From sequence record OQ378934.1: 64,000 nucleotides of DNA, one strand, 5' to 3'. Below the pieces are notes generated by a model. That model was not told where the DNA came from. It made no database searches and saw only the letters and a program-made list of their open reading frames with translations. A program made the position numbers and the translations under genes. Source of the stretch: Escherichia phage LH2. Shown here piece after piece: positions 5,383-59,052 of the stretch (its first letter is position 1; every line of letters starts with the position of its first letter).

Positions 5383-5404
5383 GGGACCTCCGGGTCCCCT
5401 TTTC
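5383..5404 (+). terminator. hairpin terminator after gene 43
   Basis: gggacc-tccg-ggtccc followed by cttttc. Confidence 0.6.
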
Positions 5405-5486
5405 ATACAAGTAATATAAATCTATACTTAAGAAAAATAGATGATTCTAGGACCTTTGAATTCATTAAAAAATTTTTCACAAAGCT

Positions 5487-5516
5487 GTTTACAAGACTGT
5501 TCCTCTGTGGTACTAT
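5487..5516 (+). promoter_or_regulatory. early sigma70-type promoter (repeated cassette copy)
   Basis: gtttac -35 at 5487-5492 and tggtactat extended -10 at 5508-5516; same cassette recurs at 33348, 36971, 54364. Confidence 0.5.
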
Positions 5517-5550
5517 ACAACTATCAACCAATACAAATTTGGAGAATGAA

Positions 5551-5931
5551 ATGAAAATCGCTATTTTGGTTATTGCATTGGGTCTTACTGGTTGTGTAGC
5601 TCAAGGACCGGTAGTAAATCAGTCTGATGTAGGAAAAATTGTAAACTGTTCAAGCAAATTTTATAATCCTAACGTCAAGTGTTATAAAGAAGTTCCAAAA
5701 CAGACAGTAGAACAAATGCAGGCGAATTTTGACGAAGCTATTCGTCCAGATGAATCTGCACAAGCATATCGTAATTCAGATGTGATTACGCGTGAAGAAA
5801 AAATTGAAAACTACTGTGCTGAACTTTGGGCAAATTGGGCTAATAATTACCAATGGCGTACTGGTAAAAATGCTCCGATGGAGTATGTAGTAAATTCTTA
5901 TAATTCATGTGTAAAAAATTTGACTAAGTGA
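5551..5931 (+). CDS. putative lipoprotein
   Basis: ATG 5551 preceded by ggagaa; N-terminus MKIAILVIALGLTGC has signal peptide and lipobox; the listed 5362 start is probably an upstream run-in. Confidence 0.6.
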   Translation: MKIAILVIALGLTGCVAQGPVVNQSDVGKIVNCSSKFYNPNVKCYKEVPKQTVEQMQANFDEAIRPDESAQAYRNSDVITREEKIENYCAELWANWANNYQWRTGKNAPMEYVVNSYNSCVKNLTK

Positions 5932-5938
5932 GGAAAAC

Positions 5939-6190
5939 ATGGAAACTTTAGTAGCAGGTTCAATTTTTATGGTTTTAGTTTCAGGCGTGTTGGCTATTAT
6001 TATATACATGCTTCCATGGTTTATCGCCTTGATGCGCGGGTCAAAATCGACAGTAGGAATCTTTTTCACATCTTTACTGTTTAACTGGTCAATTATTGGT
6101 TGGTTTATTACATTTATTTGGTCAATTGCGGGTGAAACTAAAAAATCCGCACAACCAAATCAAGTAATTATCATCAGAGAGAAGGAATGA
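5939..6190 (+). CDS. imm: superinfection immunity membrane protein Imm
   Basis: 83 aa, two hydrophobic segments, located between 43 and 42 as in T4. Confidence 0.85.
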   Translation: METLVAGSIFMVLVSGVLAIIIYMLPWFIALMRGSKSTVGIFFTSLLFNWSIIGWFITFIWSIAGETKKSAQPNQVIIIREKE

Positions 6191-10123: not shown

Positions 10124-11551
10124 GTGGTAGAAATTATTCTTTCTCATCTCATATTTGATCAAGCTTATTTTTCAAAAGTTTGGCCATATATGGATTCAGA
10201 ATATTTTGAAAGTGGTCCAGCTAAAAATACATTCAAATTAATTAAATCTCATGTCAATGAGTACCATAGCGTTCCATCTATTAATGCGTTAAATGTTGCG
10301 TTAGAAAATAGTTCATTTACTGAAACAGAATATTCTGGTGTAAAAACACTTATTTCGAAACTAACCGATTCTCCAGAAGACCACAGCTGGTTAGTAAAAG
10401 AAACAGAAAAATATGTTCAGCAAAGGGCGATGTTTAATGCTACGTCTAAAATAATTGAAATTCAAACTAATGCTGAGCTTCCTCCGGAAAAACGAAATAA
10501 GAAAATGCCAGATGTAGGTGCTATTCCTGACATCATGCGCCAAGCATTATCAATTTCATTTGATAGTTACGTTGGTCATGATTGGATGGATGACTACGAA
10601 GCACGTTGGCTATCTTATATGAATAAAGCTCGTAAGGTTCCATTTAAACTCAAAATTCTAAATAAAATTACTAAAGGCGGAGCTGAAACTGGAACACTGA
10701 ACGTTTTAATGGCTGGTGTTAACGTCGGTAAGTCATTAGGTCTGTGTTCATTGGCAGCAGATTATTTGCAGCTCGGACATAATGTTCTTTACATTTCCAT
10801 GGAAATGGCTGAAGAAGTTTGTGCTAAACGTATTGACGCTAATATGCTTGATGTTTCTCTTGATGACATTGATGATGGGCATATTTCTTACGCTGAATAT
10901 AAAGGAAAAATGGAAAAATGGCGTGAGAAATCTACTCTTGGTCGTTTAATCGTTAAACAGTATCCTACTGGTGGAGCAGATGCTAACACATTCAGGTCTC
11001 TCTTGAATGAATTGAAGCTCAAGAAGAATTTTGTTCCAACAATCATTATTGTCGACTATCTAGGTATTTGTAAATCTTGCCGCATTAGAGTTTATTCAGA
11101 AAATAGTTACACAACTGTTAAAGCTATTGCAGAAGAATTGCGTGCTCTGGCTGTTGAAACCGAAACTGTTCTTTGGACTGCAGCACAGGTTGGTAAACAA
11201 GCTTGGGATTCTTCTGATGTTAACATGAGTGATATCGCAGAATCTGCCGGTCTTCCAGCAACAGCTGATTTTATGCTTGCGGTCATTGAAACCGAGGAGC
11301 TAGCAGCTGCTGAACAACAACTCATTAAGCAAATCAAATCACGATATGGTGATAAGAATAAATGGAATAAGTTTTTGATGGGTGTTCAAAAAGGAAATCA
11401 GAAATGGGTAGAAATTGAACAAGATTCTACTCCAACTGAAGTGAACGAAGTAGCAGGTTCACAACAGATTCAGGCTGAACAGAATCGCTATCAAAGAAAT
11501 GAATCTACTCGAGCCCAGTTAGATGCTTTGGCAAATGAATTAAAATTTTAG
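10124..11551 (+). CDS. 41: replicative DNA helicase gp41 (DnaB-like)
   Basis: GTG start as in T4; 475 aa; Walker A GVNVGKS; recognised as T4 gp41. Confidence 0.95.
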   Translation: MVEIILSHLIFDQAYFSKVWPYMDSEYFESGPAKNTFKLIKSHVNEYHSVPSINALNVALENSSFTETEYSGVKTLISKLTDSPEDHSWLVKETEKYVQQRAMFNATSKIIEIQTNAELPPEKRNKKMPDVGAIPDIMRQALSISFDSYVGHDWMDDYEARWLSYMNKARKVPFKLKILNKITKGGAETGTLNVLMAGVNVGKSLGLCSLAADYLQLGHNVLYISMEMAEEVCAKRIDANMLDVSLDDIDDGHISYAEYKGKMEKWREKSTLGRLIVKQYPTGGADANTFRSLLNELKLKKNFVPTIIIVDYLGICKSCRIRVYSENSYTTVKAIAEELRALAVETETVLWTAAQVGKQAWDSSDVNMSDIAESAGLPATADFMLAVIETEELAAAEQQLIKQIKSRYGDKNKWNKFLMGVQKGNQKWVEIEQDSTPTEVNEVAGSQQIQAEQNRYQRNESTRAQLDALANELKF

Positions 11552-11609
11552 TTTACAAGCTGACAAGACTATGGTATAGTAGTCTTGTTGGTTAAATGAG
11601 GAGATCGTT

Positions 11610-24517: not shown

Positions 24518-24687
24518 AGTTTAAATTTTTTCATAAAACTATATACATCAGTAGTTGATTATGGTACTATATCAATATCAACTACTGATACAGAAAACAA
24601 CTTGGAGAATAAAATGGAAATTCGCTAAAGGTGCTGATACTCTTCTGAAACGCATCGCTCCAATGTTCAATTAATGAGGAAATTGTA

Positions 24688-32492: not shown

Positions 32493-32687
32493 ATGTTAGG
32501 TTATCAAGCACGAGTAAAAGAAGAATACGAACAATTAATGCTCAAAATTAATGCATTGAGCAAATTTTTAGAAAGTGAAAAGTTTTCAACGGTTAATGCA
32601 GTTGAGCAAGAATTACTGCTTTCGCAGTTTATCTCAATGAAATCTTATGCAGATTGTTTAGAGAAAAGAATTGCACAATTCAAATAA
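32493..32687 (+). CDS. hypothetical small protein
   Basis: 64 aa ORF flanked by hairpins. Confidence 0.45.
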   Translation: MLGYQARVKEEYEQLMLKINALSKFLESEKFSTVNAVEQELLLSQFISMKSYADCLEKRIAQFK

Positions 32688-32691
32688 AATA

Positions 32692-32714
32692 AAGGGCTTC
32701 GGCCCTTTTGTTTT
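32692..32714 (+). terminator. hairpin terminator
   Basis: agggc-ttcg-gccct then tttgtttt. Confidence 0.6.
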
Positions 32715-32773: not shown

Positions 32774-33331
32774 ATGCAGAAAACGAATCCGGGTTTACAG
32801 AGACTATTTCAGATTCCGACATTTACCCTATCGAACAGTGACTTGACTAGTGAAATGAAGGCTAAAATTGCTGATACAGCAAGATACTCTTTAAAACAAA
32901 ATCCAAATCAGGATAAAGCAGAAGTTATTGAAAGATGCCGTATCGCTGTGTATGCAGAGTTTTTTGTAGCAGATTGGCTGAGCGGGTATGTTAATAAAGG
33001 TCAAGAGGATGTTAATGACCCGTATACATATGCGTGGGATGTACTGGCGCATCCAAAATACTGCGGGCTTCGTGTAGAAGTCAAAACACATCAAACTGAC
33101 TCACGTTGGATTTCGGTAACAACCGGATGCAGCGGAGAATATCCATACGGTTCTGGAATAAATCTAGGGCCCATTCTGAATCATCAGGTCGCTGACTGTA
33201 TAATTATATTCAACACTAAAGAAATTCATCCAGGTGTCATCCAGTACACTCCGAAGTTCATCGGTGATAGAGAAGACCTTCGTAAGGTTGTAAGAAAAAG
33301 CAACTACAACGGATGGTATCTTTCCATTTAA
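32774..33331 (+). CDS. denB: endonuclease IV DenB
   Basis: 185 aa; position after rIIB as in T4. Confidence 0.8.
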   Translation: MQKTNPGLQRLFQIPTFTLSNSDLTSEMKAKIADTARYSLKQNPNQDKAEVIERCRIAVYAEFFVADWLSGYVNKGQEDVNDPYTYAWDVLAHPKYCGLRVEVKTHQTDSRWISVTTGCSGEYPYGSGINLGPILNHQVADCIIIFNTKEIHPGVIQYTPKFIGDREDLRKVVRKSNYNGWYLSI

Positions 33332-33347
33332 AAATTTTCACAAAACA

Positions 33348-33377
33348 GTTTACATACCACAAGGACTGTGGTACTAT
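33348..33377 (+). promoter_or_regulatory. early promoter (repeated cassette copy)
   Basis: gtttac 33348-33353, tggtactat; conserved leader actatacaactatcaact. Confidence 0.5.
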
Positions 33378-33411
33378 ACAACTATCAACTGATACGGATT
33401 TGGAGAATAAA

Positions 33412-33618
33412 ATGTTTACTACAGCTGAACTAAAACGAGCAAAAGCTAAGAAAGGGCAAGGAAAATATAAAGCTGAATTAGTTAAAGAACTTCAGTTTGC
33501 TGAGGCTGAATTGAATTCAATGATTATTCAAAATGCTCCAGAAACTGAAATTGCTCTTAAACGTATTGCGAATAAGTGTCTTCGTGATGCAATCGTCGAT
33601 CTTTTAGCGGATTATTGA
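33412..33618 (+). CDS. hypothetical protein
   Basis: ATG 33412 after ttggagaataaa leader; 68 aa. Confidence 0.45.
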   Translation: MFTTAELKRAKAKKGQGKYKAELVKELQFAEAELNSMIIQNAPETEIALKRIANKCLRDAIVDLLADY

Positions 33619-33835
33619 GTAAAATGAAAATCGTTGAGATTGAACTATGAGTTCATTATGGTGGTGTTTCGTTTGGTTAATTAGTATTCCATTAATTTGT
33701 TTAACATTTACTTTTGTGATGAGGTTATTATGAAAATTTTTAATTCTGTACTTATTGCTTGTGCGTGGTGGGTTGCGCAAGTTTCGGCAGTAGTGATTGG
33801 TATTCACATTTATTACGAATATTTTTAAAAAAGTT

Positions 33836-33865
33836 GTTTACAAGACTGTTCCTCTGTGGTATTAT
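33836..33865 (+). promoter_or_regulatory. early promoter (repeated cassette copy)
   Basis: gtttacaagactgttcctctgtggta identical over ~25 nt to the copy at 5487. Confidence 0.5.
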
Positions 33866-33893
33866 TACCCTATCAACTACGGAGGAACAGAAA

Positions 33894-34007
33894 ATGAAAA
33901 AGATTGTTAAAGCTATATGGAATGTAGTTATAATACTAATAGTTTTGAGTATATTCCCAATCGTTTTAATGATTGATGTATTAAACGCTTACTTTGGATT
34001 TATGTGA
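33894..34007 (+). CDS. small membrane peptide (37 aa)
   Basis: MKKIVKAIWNVVIILIVLSIFPIVLMIDVLNAYFGFM after ggagg RBS. Confidence 0.4.
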   Translation: MKKIVKAIWNVVIILIVLSIFPIVLMIDVLNAYFGFM

Positions 34008-36914: not shown

Positions 36915-36919
36915 TTTTA

Positions 36920-36947
36920 GGGAGAGCCGAGGCTCTCCCTTTTTTAT
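36920..36947 (+). terminator. rho-independent terminator
   Basis: gggagagcc-ga-ggctctccc then ttttttat. Confidence 0.7.
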
Positions 36948-36970
36948 TTCAAAAATTTTTTCACAAAACG

Positions 36971-37000
36971 GTTTACAACCAAAGCATACTGTGGTACTAT
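36971..37000 (+). promoter_or_regulatory. early promoter (repeated cassette copy) for motA
   Basis: gtttac 36971-36976, tggtactat 36992-37000. Confidence 0.5.
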
Positions 37001-37041
37001 ACAACTATCAACTACTGATACAGAATTACGGAGATTAGAAA

Positions 37042-37677
37042 ATGTCTAAAGTAACTTACATCATCAAAGCTTCTAACGATGTTCTGAATGAAAAAACTGC
37101 TGCGATTTTAATTACCATTGCTAAGAAAGATTTCATTACAGCCGCAGAAGTTCGTGAGGTGCATCCAGATTTAGGTAACGCAGTAGTTAATAGTAATATT
37201 GGGGTATTGATTAAAAAAGGCCTGGTGGAGAAATCTGGTGATGGATTAATCATTACGGGTGAAGCTCAGGATATTATTTCAAATGCGGCAACTTTATACG
37301 CACAGGAAAACGCTCCTGAACTGCTGAAAAAACGAGCAACTCGTAAAGCTCGCGAGATTACTTCTGATATGGAAGAAGATAAAGACCTCATGCTAAAACT
37401 TTTAGATGAAAATGGATTTGTTCTTAAAAAAGTTGAAACTTATCGTAGTAACTATCTCGCTATTTTAGAAAAACGCACTCACGGAATTCGTAATTTTGAA
37501 ATTAACAACAATGGAAATATGCGAATTTTTGGATACAAAATGATGGAACATCATATTCAGAAATTTACTGACATCGGTATGTCATGCAAAATCGCTAAAA
37601 ATGGTAATGTGTATCTTGACATTAAACGCTCAGCAGAAAACATTGAAGCTGTAATCACCGTAGCATCTGAACTGTGA
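37042..37677 (+). CDS. motA: middle transcription activator MotA
   Basis: 211 aa; recognised as T4 MotA. Confidence 0.9.
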   Translation: MSKVTYIIKASNDVLNEKTAAILITIAKKDFITAAEVREVHPDLGNAVVNSNIGVLIKKGLVEKSGDGLIITGEAQDIISNAATLYAQENAPELLKKRATRKAREITSDMEEDKDLMLKLLDENGFVLKKVETYRSNYLAILEKRTHGIRNFEINNNGNMRIFGYKMMEHHIQKFTDIGMSCKIAKNGNVYLDIKRSAENIEAVITVASEL

Positions 37678-54312: not shown

Positions 54313-54339
54313 GGGGACCTCTAGGGTCCCCTTTTTTTA
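54313..54339 (+). terminator. rho-independent terminator after gene 32
   Basis: ggggacc-tctag-ggtcccc then ttttttt. Confidence 0.7.
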
Positions 54340-54363
54340 TTTCAAAAATTTTTTCACAAAACT

Positions 54364-54393
54364 GTTTACATCCTTGTCCTTCCGTGGTACTAT
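54364..54393 (+). promoter_or_regulatory. early promoter (repeated cassette copy)
   Basis: gtttac 54364-54369, tggtactat; same upstream atttcaaaaattttttcacaaaac block as at 36950. Confidence 0.5.
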
Positions 54394-54436
54394 ACAACTA
54401 TCGGCAATACTGCTGATAGTTAAAGAGGAAAATAAT

Positions 54437-54664
54437 ATGGCTAAAGTTGATATTGACATCGTTGATTTTGAATATATTGAAGAAATTATTCGTAATCGTT
54501 ATCCTGAACTTAGTATCACAAGCGTGCAAGATTCTAAGTTTTGGAGTATTCAAATCGTTATTGAAGGTCCTCTTGAAGACCTCACCCGTTTTATGGCTAA
54601 TGAATATTGTGATGGCATGGATTCTGAAGACGCAGAATTTTACATGGGACTGATTGAACAATAA
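54437..54664 (+). CDS. hypothetical protein
   Basis: ATG 54437 with agagga RBS; 75 aa. Confidence 0.5.
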
Positions 54665-54709: not shown

Positions 54710-55096
54710 ATGGAAATCGGCAAAAAATATGAGTTAAATCCACACCGTATTAAATCTTTCATTGATATTAGTTCATCAAATGCTAATATGGTCAGCATCA
54801 TTCAAGAAAATGGCGGTTGGTTTGAAGTTAAATCAATATCAAGTTTAGATGGCTTTGATTATGTAACTGAAATCATTTGTGCTAATGGCGAAATCTATTA
54901 TAATGATGGCATAGGTGATGATTATTTTGAACTTAGTGAAGAAGAGTTTTATTGTTTCCGCGAGTATAAAGAACCGACTTCTGAAGAAGATGAAGTCGAA
55001 GACAAGATTTCTGGCGTAACAAAAATTCACTGCATTGTAGACGAAAACAATGTAGATGAAATCATTGAACTTTTGCGAAAAACTTTCAAAAAGTAG
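54710..55096 (+). CDS. hypothetical protein
   Basis: ATG 54710 with gagga RBS; 128 aa. Confidence 0.5.
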   Translation: MEIGKKYELNPHRIKSFIDISSSNANMVSIIQENGGWFEVKSISSLDGFDYVTEIICANGEIYYNDGIGDDYFELSEEEFYCFREYKEPTSEEDEVEDKISGVTKIHCIVDENNVDEIIELLRKTFKK

Positions 55097-55150
55097 TTTA
55101 CAGCAGGGTAGTAGTGTGATACTATTACCCTATCAACTAAGGAGAATAAA

Positions 55151-55393
55151 ATGAGATTACAACGTCAGAGCATTAAAGATTCAGAAGTTAGAGGTAAATG
55201 GTATTTTAATATCATCGGTAAAGATTCTGAACTTGTTGAAAAAGCTGAACGTCTTTTGCGTGATATGGGATGGGAAGATGAATGCGATGGATGCCCTCTT
55301 TATGAGGATGGAGAAAGCGCAGGATTCTGGATTTACCATTCTGACGTTGAACAGTTTAAAGCTGATTGGAAAATTGTGAAAAAGTCTGTTTGA
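55151..55393 (+). CDS. hypothetical protein
   Basis: 80 aa ORF after early promoter. Confidence 0.5.
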   Translation: MRLQRQSIKDSEVRGKWYFNIIGKDSELVEKAERLLRDMGWEDECDGCPLYEDGESAGFWIYHSDVEQFKADWKIVKKSV

Positions 55394-56735: not shown

Positions 56736-57751
56736 TAATTTAGGCCTGAGTATAAGGTGACTTATACTTGTAATCTATCTAAACGGGGAACCTCTCTAGT
56801 AGACAATCCCGTGCTAAATTGTAGGACTACCCTTTAATAAATACTTCTATATTTAAAGAGGTATTTATGAAAAGTGGAATTTATCAGATTAAAAATACTT
56901 TAAACAATAAAGTATATGTAGGAAGTGCTAAAGATTTTGAAAAGAGATGGAAGAGGCATTTTAAAGACTTAGAAAAAGGATGCCATTCTTCTATAAAACT
57001 TCAAAGGTCTTTTAACAAACACGGTAATGTGTTTGAATGCTCTATTTTGGAAGAAATTCCATATGAGAAAGATTTGATTATTGAACGAGAAAATTTTTGG
57101 ATTAAAGAGCTTAATTCTAAAATTAATGGATACAATATTGCTGATGCAACGTTTGGTGATACATATTCTGTACATCCATTAAAAGAAGAAATTATTAAGA
57201 AACGCTCTGAAACTGTTAAAGTTAAGATGCTTAAGCTTGGCTCTGATGGTCGGAAAGCTCTTTACGGTAAACCCGGAAGCAAAAATGGGCGTTGGAATCC
57301 AGAAACCCATAAGTTTTGTGAATGTGGGGTTCGTATACAAACTTCTGCTTATACTTGTAGTAAATGCAGAAATCGTTCAGGTGAAAATAATTCATTCTTT
57401 AATCATAAGCATTCAGACAAAACTAAATCTAAAATATCAGAAAAAATGAAAGGTAAAAAGCCTAATAATATTAAAAAGATTTCATGTGATGGGATTATTT
57501 TTGAATGTGCAGCTGATGCAGCTAGATATTTTGAAATTTCATCCGGATTAGTTACTTACCGTGTAAAATCTGATAAGTGGAATTGGTTCTACATAAATGC
57601 CTAACGACTATCCCTTTAGGGAGTAGGGTCAAGTGACTCGAAACGATAGACAACTTGCTTTAGCAAGTTGGAGATATAGTCTGCTCTGCATGGTGACATG
57701 CAGCTGGATATAATTCCGGGATAAGATTAACGACCTTATCTGAACATAATG
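56736..57751 (+). mobile_element. td group I self-splicing intron (1016 nt)
   Basis: Interrupts td between ...DVFLG and LPFNIASYA...; exactly 1016 nt as the T4 td intron; contains I-TevI ORF. Confidence 0.9.
56867..57604 (+). CDS. I-TevI: intron-encoded GIY-YIG homing endonuclease I-TevI
   Basis: 245 aa; MKSGIYQIKNTLNNKVYVGSA... GIY-YIG domain, zinc finger and C-terminal HTH. Confidence 0.93.
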   Translation: MKSGIYQIKNTLNNKVYVGSAKDFEKRWKRHFKDLEKGCHSSIKLQRSFNKHGNVFECSILEEIPYEKDLIIERENFWIKELNSKINGYNIADATFGDTYSVHPLKEEIIKKRSETVKVKMLKLGSDGRKALYGKPGSKNGRWNPETHKFCECGVRIQTSAYTCSKCRNRSGENNSFFNHKHSDKTKSKISEKMKGKKPNNIKKISCDGIIFECAADAARYFEISSGLVTYRVKSDKWNWFYINA

Positions 57752-58086: not shown

Positions 58087-58332
58087 ATGATTTTACGATT
58101 TAAGGATACTTCTGGTGTCGTTCTTTTTACACTTCCTAATCCAAGTGAACTGGAAGTTCCAGGGCCAGAACAGCCTATTATCATTTATGGCAAAAAATAT
58201 TATACTCATAAAATGACTCGTGAGTATTTTGATAATAAAATTTCTACAGTTAAAACTTCTTCTGATTGTTATTATGATATTACTGTTTTAACGGAAAAAC
58301 AATATGACGAATGCAGAACTTTAGCAGTATAA
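58087..58332 (+). CDS. hypothetical protein
   Basis: ATG 58087 with gagagga RBS; 81 aa. Confidence 0.45.
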
Positions 58333-59052
58333 ATATGATTCCCAGCAATCTAGAGCGCATCTTTTAGATATAAGTTTTCTGCTTATTCCGGTTTGACGCA
58401 CAGCTTCTGCTATTGTTGGATATTCTACCCCATCTATACTTACTCTTAGATGGGGTTTCTTTTTACCTCTTTGCGAGTCAGAAATTCGTTTTCTAACTTC
58501 ATTGGTATGTGTCTGTCCATAATATGGGTTATTGATGCCTTTCATATTAAGTGCAGCGTTTCTTTCTTGGAACTTTTTGCTTATTTCTATAGCACGATCT
58601 AACCCATAGTGTTCTTCTATAGTTTTACCTTTGATATCTCTAGGTCTACCATGTTTTTGCTTAAGTTCTTCTGGTGATAATTTTGAATTATTATTTTTAA
58701 TTGCATTTGAAATTTTATTAAGGATTTCTTTCTTTCTTGGGTGATGAGATAAGGTATCCCCAAACGATGCGTCTGCTATATTATACCCATTTTCCTTTGA
58801 GTCATATTCATGCATCCAATAATTTTCACGTTCAATAATGATAGATTTTTCGTATGGAAGTTCTTCTATGATTTTACATACGAAAGCATCTTTCCCATGC
58901 TTATTATAAGAACGCTGCAGCTTTATTGAATGATGATTTCCATTATCTAAATCTTTAAAGTGTCGTTTCCATCGTTCTTCAAAATTAATTGCACTTCCTA
59001 TATAGTGCTTATTGGTTTTAGTGTTTATAATAGCATATATTCCAGATTTCAT
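58321..59052 (-). CDS. free-standing GIY-YIG endonuclease, I-TevI paralogue (antisense)
   Basis: 243 aa; N-terminal ~115 aa closely parallel to I-TevI ([21 protein letters not shown]...RWKRHFKDL...NGYNIADA); SD aggaga; late promoter upstream. Confidence 0.75.

Follow-up and report, generated by a model that had tools for sequence, protein, structure and literature searches.

Why does a unit of about 100 nt that lies directly upstream of motA in Escherichia phage LH2 recur, in near-identical form, at six other places, and is it a vehicle for moving genes? A preliminary description of the 64,000 nucleotides analysed here (sequence record OQ378934.1; hereafter the window) had listed seven such units upstream of small early genes. 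All seven are present, on the plus strand, and they align readily. The unit at 24520-24613, which had been set apart as a related copy, does belong to the family and has a variant -35 (ATATAC). We consider it very probable that the units are sigma-70-dependent, T4-like immediate-early promoters that form a paralogous family and double as portable homology for module exchange. The repeats are real and the initial reading of them was mainly correct; both the promoters and their role in shuffling have been described before, in T4 and phages closely related to it.

The whole window is collinear with T4 at approximately 95% identity over the alignment, which places the phage among the Tequatroviruses, and the 3-kb stretch around the focal repeat is 97-98% identical to many Tequatrovirus genomes. 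The plus strand of the window corresponds to the T4 minus strand, which carries early and middle genes, and matches T4 from 32.5 kb down to 1 and then from 168.9 down to 138.7 kb. The repeated units lie upstream of imm.1, cef, ndd.6, ndd.4, motA, frd.3 and frd.1, and they occupy the same places in T4, PST and Shfl2. No promoter features are annotated in the T4 records NC_000866 and AF158101; the GenBank record of SA21RB carries, at the orthologous sites, the remark 'similar to phage T4 early promoter GTTTAC(N14)gtggTAttaT (Miller et al. 2003)', and it labels the hairpin 3' of gene 32 a rho-independent terminator. In other Tevenvirinae genera, with gp32 proteins that are 60-80% identical, gene 32, the hairpin, GTTTAC-N15-TGnTAnnAT and a ..CTATCAA.. 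start region and leader are all kept in this order. Across 541 phage records the focal 131 nt have 3388 matches, with 5-7 in a typical genome.

Some other features of the window are recorded here as observations in their own right. The td gene is split by an insert of approximately 1 kb (56739-57748) that contains I-TevI (56867-57604), is absent from Shfl2 and is presumably the td group I intron; an Rfam gathering scan of the window reported no group I intron in this insert. An additional, 243-aa GIY-YIG ORF resembling I-TevI lies on the minus strand at 58321-59052, against the direction of the early genes around it; it is located between the ORFs downstream of td and nrdA, at the place of T4 nrdA.1/nrdA.2. 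A second small repeat family consists of terminator-like hairpins, (A)GGGGCTTCGGCCCC(TT), at 641-667, 2588-2614 and 32682-32708, and a PST-specific insertion, ORF046, adjoins the copy at 2588.

The focal unit joins the end of one transcription unit to the beginning of the next (Table 1). Its hairpin (36919-36940) has a folding energy of -17.6 kcal/mol (z = -4.0 against shuffles), and the terminator is conserved in T4, PST, Shfl2 and L037. Transcription of motA is predicted to start near 37007, and the leader is unstructured (minimum free energy of -0.6 kcal/mol, no better than shuffles). Judging from this arrangement, the focal unit would end the gene 52-motA.1 transcript and start that of motA.

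Table 1. Coordinates of the focal unit, the other repeated copies and the non-repeated early promoters in the window; promoters and terminators are predicted.
Feature	Position	Strand	Details
motA.1 stop codon	36912-36914	+	just before the terminator
Focal copy	36919-37044	+	motA.1 terminator and motA early promoter
Intrinsic terminator of motA.1	36919-36946	+	stem AGGGAGAGC/GCUCUCCCU, loop CGAG, T6 tract
A/T-rich UP block of the motA promoter	36941-36970	+	TTTTTATTTCAAAAATTTTTTCACAAAACG; 30-nt string identical to the frd.3 copy
motA core early promoter	36971-37000	+	orthologous to the motA-upstream site of T4
motA -35	36971-36976	+	GTTTAC, followed by a 15-nt spacer
motA extended -10 (TGn)	36992-36994	+	TGG
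motA -10	36995-37000	+	TACTAT
motA start-site block and leader	37001-37041	+	ACAACTATCAACT; SD GGAG at 37030-37033
motA	37042-37677	+	211 aa, conserved regulator, 3' of the focal cassette
imm.1 copy	5383-5553	+	gene 43 terminator hairpin 5383-5398, promoter 5487-5516, ATG 5551
cef-upstream copy	24520-24628	+	-35 ATATAC 24541-24546, TGGTACTAT 24562-24570, RegB-type SD 24604, ATG 24614
ndd.6-position copy	33327-33414	+	downstream of denB; promoter 33348-33377, RegB-type SD 33402, ATG 33412
ndd.4 copy	33815-33896	+	promoter 33836-33865, ATG 33894; 27-nt identical string in common with the imm.1 copy
frd.3 copy	54313-54439	+	gene 32 terminator 54313-54331 and T7 tract, promoter 54364-54393, leader 5' hairpin, ATG 54437
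frd.1 copy	55078-55153	+	promoter 55096-55125, RegB-type SD 55141, ATG 55151
dmd early promoter	11551-11580	+	same class, without the repeated start-site block or leader
mrh.2 early promoter	from 15776	+	non-repeated
modB early promoter	from 17884	+	non-repeated
srd early promoter	from 19219	+	non-repeated
motB.2 early promoter	from 22850	+	non-repeated
rIIA.1 early promoter	from 29069	+	non-repeated
asiA early promoter	from 39436	+	non-repeated

With up to 3 mismatches allowed, the core TGGTACTATACAACTATCAAC has 5 matches in the window and the UP/-35 block AAATTTTTCACAAAACNGTTTACA has 4, with 0.00 expected in both cases, while the exact pattern GTTTAC-N15-TGNTANNNT has 13 matches, all on the plus strand, compared to 0.08 expected. 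A generic sigma-70 scan of the window gave 52 sites versus 66 expected and is uninformative in a genome this rich in A/T. We aligned 14 promoter units on the -35 hexamer, comprising the 13 exact matches and the cef copy. The order of elements in this alignment is an A/T-rich block (AAAWTTTTTCAMAAA), GTTTAC, a consensus-free 15-nt spacer, TGG, TGA or TGT, and TAYWAT. The seven non-repeated early promoters all have an exact GTTTAC, as do six of the repeated copies; the exception is the cef copy, whose ATATAC is kept in T4, PST and Shfl2. In the seven repeated units, the -10 (TACTAT or TATTAT) is followed by (ACAA or TACC)CTATCAAC, a 20-40 nt leader, a GGAG-type SD and the ATG, and the start-site block, ACAACTATCAAC in the window, is conserved to about +6. 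The remaining half of the set (dmd, mrh.2, modB, srd, motB.2, rIIA.1 and asiA) shares the polymerase-contact columns only. The T4 early promoter consensus is reportedly that of Liebig and Rueger 1989, Wilkens and Rueger 1996 and Miller et al. 2003.

Early promoters of T4 are of the UP/-35/TGn/-10 type with further consensus regions (Hinton review, PMC2988021). In T4-like phages, GTTTAC occupies -36 to -31, with an A-rich block at -40 to -44 (Nolan et al., PMC1524935), and both sources describe an UP element for these promoters (PMC2988021, PMC1524935). The units resemble this class in their GTTTAC, 17-bp spacing, TGn, TAnnnT -10, A-rich UP block (of the AAATTTTTCACAAAAC type, upstream of the -35), extra conserved positions and location on the early strand, as well as in their genomic positions (motA, imm.1, frd.3, ndd, asiA, modB, srd, dmd and others). 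Nothing substantial sets them apart, the differences being single-base and spacer-allele changes. Every sequence hallmark of the T4 early promoter class is present, and the units are predicted to be active as promoters early in infection.

The preliminary description also gave each unit a GC hairpin plus T-tract and a common leader, and both attributes apply to part of the family. Hairpins of this kind are found at 5383, 36919 and 54313; upstream of the copies at 24520, 33330, 33820 and 55085 there are weak A/U-rich stems or nothing above shuffles. Segments 36919-36946 and 54313-54338 combine a G+C hairpin, a T tract and a gene end, as expected for intrinsic terminators, whereas 5383-5403 has 4 T only. 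The gene 32 hairpin (54313-54331) has a folding energy of -15.4 kcal/mol, and the terminator 3' of gene 32 is conserved in 5 of 6 T4-like genomes (PMC1524935); the gene 43 hairpin (5383-5398) reaches -12.8 kcal/mol and lies 88 nt upstream of the -35. The composite terminator-promoter-leader appearance of these three copies arises because the upstream unit (gene 43, motA.1 or gene 32) ends just before the promoter. At frd.1, the promoter spacer and -10 (55102-55128) form an imperfect palindrome (GGGTAGTAG..CTATTACCC), a sequence that is annotated in SA21RB as promoter and predicted terminator at once. As to the leader, ttggagaataaaatg is found in 4 of the 7 copies, in one of them with G for A, and the motA, ndd.4 and frd.3 copies have other SD regions.

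Some of the leader SDs also resemble cleavage sites of RegB/S1, for which the consensus GG*AGRAYARAA is quoted in PMC3014915 from Durand et al. 2006. The string GGAGRAYARAA occurs exactly three times in 64 kb (24604, 33402 and 55141), each time on the plus strand and in a cassette leader. The SD GGAGAATAAAA of the cef, ndd.6-position and frd.1 copies fits 11 of 11 consensus positions and the motA SD GGAGATTAGAA fits 10 of 11; the frd.3 and ndd.4 leaders have no consensus match. RegB would accordingly be a candidate for cleaving cassette leaders at their SDs.

The history of the copies can be read from their spacers. We compared these in the window, T4, PST, Shfl2, SA21RB and five Tequatrovirus contigs from IMG/VR; since that database held only about five such contigs, the survey of spacer alleles covers approximately 10 genomes. 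Several 15-nt alleles each precede 2-4 unrelated genes: AAGCATAAAGCTTTA is found at frd.3 in T4 and SA21RB and at two other genes elsewhere, AACCAAAGCATACTG at motA in six genomes and at a different ORF in two others, and AAGACTGTTC.. at imm.1, ndd.4 and a third gene. Within loci the alleles vary, with three at frd.3, four at the imm.1 site and two at frd.1. The identical spacer of the imm.1 and ndd.4 copies, noted previously as 25 nt, is slightly longer at 27 nt (TGTTTACAAGACTGTTCCTCTGTGGTA, at 5486-5512 and 33835-33861), and the motA and frd.3 copies have 30 identical nt of UP element. A derived ..CCTCTG is common to the imm.1 and ndd.4 spacers of the window; both T4 spacers read ..CTTCC[AG] there. 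The likeness of the copies goes beyond the promoter consensus. Because identical spacers occur at unrelated loci and vary within a locus, exchange between copies is probably needed to explain them, although the sharing of alleles could in part come from phages trading orthologous loci instead of from within-genome conversion. Chimeric combinations of spacer, leader and gene are seen as well, together with one module that has 24-nt direct-repeat flanks, and these patterns lend support to past exchange between cassette copies.

To locate gene gains and losses relative to the cassettes, we used chained alignments of the window with T4, PST and Shfl2, and with partial loci around motA and gene 32. 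There are 49 junction clusters in the window with tail-fibre genes left out, of which 8 fall in cassettes covering 2.6% of the window (p = 3e-5 under a uniform null). Under a gene-start null, where 14 of about 94 starts have a cassette, enrichment is absent (p = 0.45), and we therefore make no claim that promoters as such attract junctions. Of the 7 repeated cassettes, 6 carry a junction, whereas the 7 non-repeated early promoters have none (Fisher p = 0.002), a contrast that is inflated because the extra comparators cover the motA and gene 32 regions only; with the whole-window comparators alone, the numbers are 4 of 7 versus 0 of 7 (p = 0.035). The attraction of junctions is real for the repeated subfamily only, and relative to the non-repeated promoters. 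It had been proposed that the units flank exactly the small variable ORFs. As stated this is too strong, since the focal cargo motA is conserved and imm.1 and frd.3 are present in all 4 whole genomes compared; what survives is the link between the repeated subfamily and variability that the contrast with non-repeated promoters reveals. Within cassettes, the junctions are mostly in the leader/SD-ATG part and are spread over leader, SD, ATG and UP segments. At least 12 gene-sized indels (2588, 12404, 21656, 25506, 35136, 55402, 55984 and others) are located at SD-ATG microhomology with no promoter nearby, indicating that the promoter part is dispensable for shuffling, and for approximately two thirds of the window's gene-sized indels the junction lacks a cassette.

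Individual loci illustrate how cargo changes behind a retained cassette. In Shfl2, an extra ORF begins exactly at the ATG of the imm.1 leader, and at the ndd.6 position one identical leader is followed by ndd.6 in T4, by ORF269 both in PST and in the window, and in Shfl2 by a third gene. At the cef cassette, homology between the window and Shfl2 ends directly after ATGGAAA: Shfl2 has a 90-aa ORF there (Shfl2p009), and the window has an ORF of 4 codons (24614-24628; MEIR and stop) right after the cassette ATG, which looks like a deletion scar that would leave an orphan promoter directed into cef. In T4 and PST, a mini-ORF separates the frd.1 promoter from frd.1. At the focal locus itself, three IMG/VR contigs (L035, L036 and L038) carry a 320-bp module between the promoter and motA. 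This module consists of a 75-aa ORF (MKFKIENEIV...) and its own, different early promoter; on either side of it stands one copy of a directly repeated 24-nt leader segment, CTATCAAATAAATGAACTGAAAC. In L038 it is located at 5560-6000, corresponding to window 37011-37030, and the MotA of the genomes carrying it is 99-100% identical to that of the window.

The arrangement has a published counterpart in the promoter-early stem-loop (PeSL) cassettes (Arbiol et al. 2010, PMC2839356; Comeau, Arbiol and Krisch 2014, PMC4122927). The T4/PST pair was analysed for PeSLs, giving the consensus TTTACW-N17-TAYWAT, and the worked example (Fig 6A of PMC4122927), the exchange of ndd.4/.5 versus ORF268/269, is the locus at 33.3-33.9 kb of the window. 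The likeness to T4-type shuffling cassettes that was suggested at the outset is therefore borne out. Both systems have an AT-rich region, an early promoter, an SD and an ATG, preceded in some of the copies here by a stem-loop, the units fit the published consensus and are associated with indels, and the crossovers in the window lie between the -10 and the ATG, as reported for PeSLs (PMC2839356). They differ in three respects. A convincing terminator hairpin is present in 3 of the 7 repeated copies only, making membership full for 3 and partial for 4, and the stems of PST/T4 PeSLs are themselves described as variable (PMC4122927). The focal copy precedes a conserved regulator, motA, though relatives carry a cargo module there. 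Lastly, according to our junction survey, most gene indels need no promoter part. An older parallel is the short-homology modular exchange in T-even phages of Repoila et al. 1994; as presented in PMC4122927, short conserved regulatory sequences bound gene-sized replacements there too, but that work dealt with the internal-protein locus and reportedly put forward no specific element.

Could the copies be alike through independent convergence on the optimum of the host RNA polymerase, with neither common descent nor exchange? The best conserved columns are indeed the functional ones (UP, -35, TGn and -10), and it is those columns alone that the seven other early promoters share. Convergence does not explain, however, why consensus-free spacers are identical at 15 of 15 nt between unrelated loci and wholly different between orthologous loci of 95%-identical phages, nor why identical strings of 27-30 nt join unlinked copies and the imm.1 and ndd.4 spacers of the window co-vary, and we regard it as extremely improbable. 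The opposite extreme, in which the cassettes are active mobile elements or dedicated targets of a site-specific recombinase (the strong PeSL 'mini-circle' idea), appears just as improbable. The module with direct leader repeats on both sides would fit such a process, but junctions are scattered over leader, SD, ATG and UP with no single fixed site, equivalent junctions occur at plain SD-ATG microhomology without a cassette, and no recombinase is associated with the cassette copies. Homologous recombination in T4 is moreover very active, which also speaks against a dedicated recombinase.

Two further possibilities concern the conserved parts downstream of the -10. The start-site block (ACAACTATCAAC; ..CTATCAA.. 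in other genera) might, beyond its contact with the polymerase, serve a phage factor as an operator or as a signal in the RNA, for example in early shut-off. In favour of this, the block recurs in distant Tevenvirinae, with conservation extending to about +6, and reviews describe the shut-off of early promoters as 'not completely understood' (PMC3014915, PMC2988021). Half of the 14 early promoters of the window nevertheless do without it, yet early shut-off is general; the RNA of the block is unstructured and has no Rfam match. In addition, we know of no factor that binds the block, which counts further against an operator, and we consider this reading very doubtful. A role for the block as recognition element in the abrupt shut-off of an early-promoter subclass, or as preferred crossover signal of a dedicated exchange, is similarly a long shot. 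That the repeated leaders fold into a structured element at the 5' end of the RNA, such as a stabilising hairpin or a riboregulator, is almost certainly wrong. The motA, cef and T4 ndd.6 leaders do contain a short inverted repeat, TATCA..TGATA, and the frd.3 leader (54400-54417) does fold into a 7-bp hairpin at the predicted mRNA 5' end (-7.6 kcal/mol, z = -2.9). The other six leaders fold no better than shuffles (0 to -2.6 kcal/mol), several copies have lost the TGATA half while keeping CTATC, and a gathering-score scan of the whole window against Rfam gave zero matches; a conserved TATCA..TGATA hairpin in the leader was rejected on these grounds. In T4, the corresponding stem of the frd.3 leader has two mismatches.

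Our preferred explanation remains a paralogous family of early promoters that also provides portable homology. Unmodified or Alt-modified host RNA polymerase would read the cassettes in the first minutes of infection, with the alpha C-terminal domains contacting the A/T-rich UP element and the remainder of recognition presumably depending on the T4-specific -35 GTTTAC, the 17-bp hexamer spacing, the TGn extended -10 (TACTAT or TATTAT) and the start-site block. A GGAG SD in a short unstructured leader would then give strong translation and, where the SD reads GGAGAATAAAA, may act as a RegB/S1 cleavage site through which the early mRNA is later inactivated. Selection for an optimal promoter, together with ectopic homologous recombination or gene conversion, would keep the copies alike. 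The resulting dispersed, co-oriented blocks of 20-30 nt identity in front of start codons would constitute the portable homology, and promoter-plus-gene modules could be inserted, deleted or replaced at the cassettes, with crossovers mostly in the leader/SD-ATG part.

With crossovers in the leader/SD-ATG part and most gene indels promoter-free, our analysis refines, and tempers, the published claim of PeSL-driven plasticity. For annotation, it provides the simple rule that GTTTAC-N15-TGnTAnnnT on the early strand marks the starts of transcription units in Tequatroviruses. More generally, the family offers a clean illustration of how the strongest promoters of a phage may at the same time provide scattered homology through which accessory early genes move.
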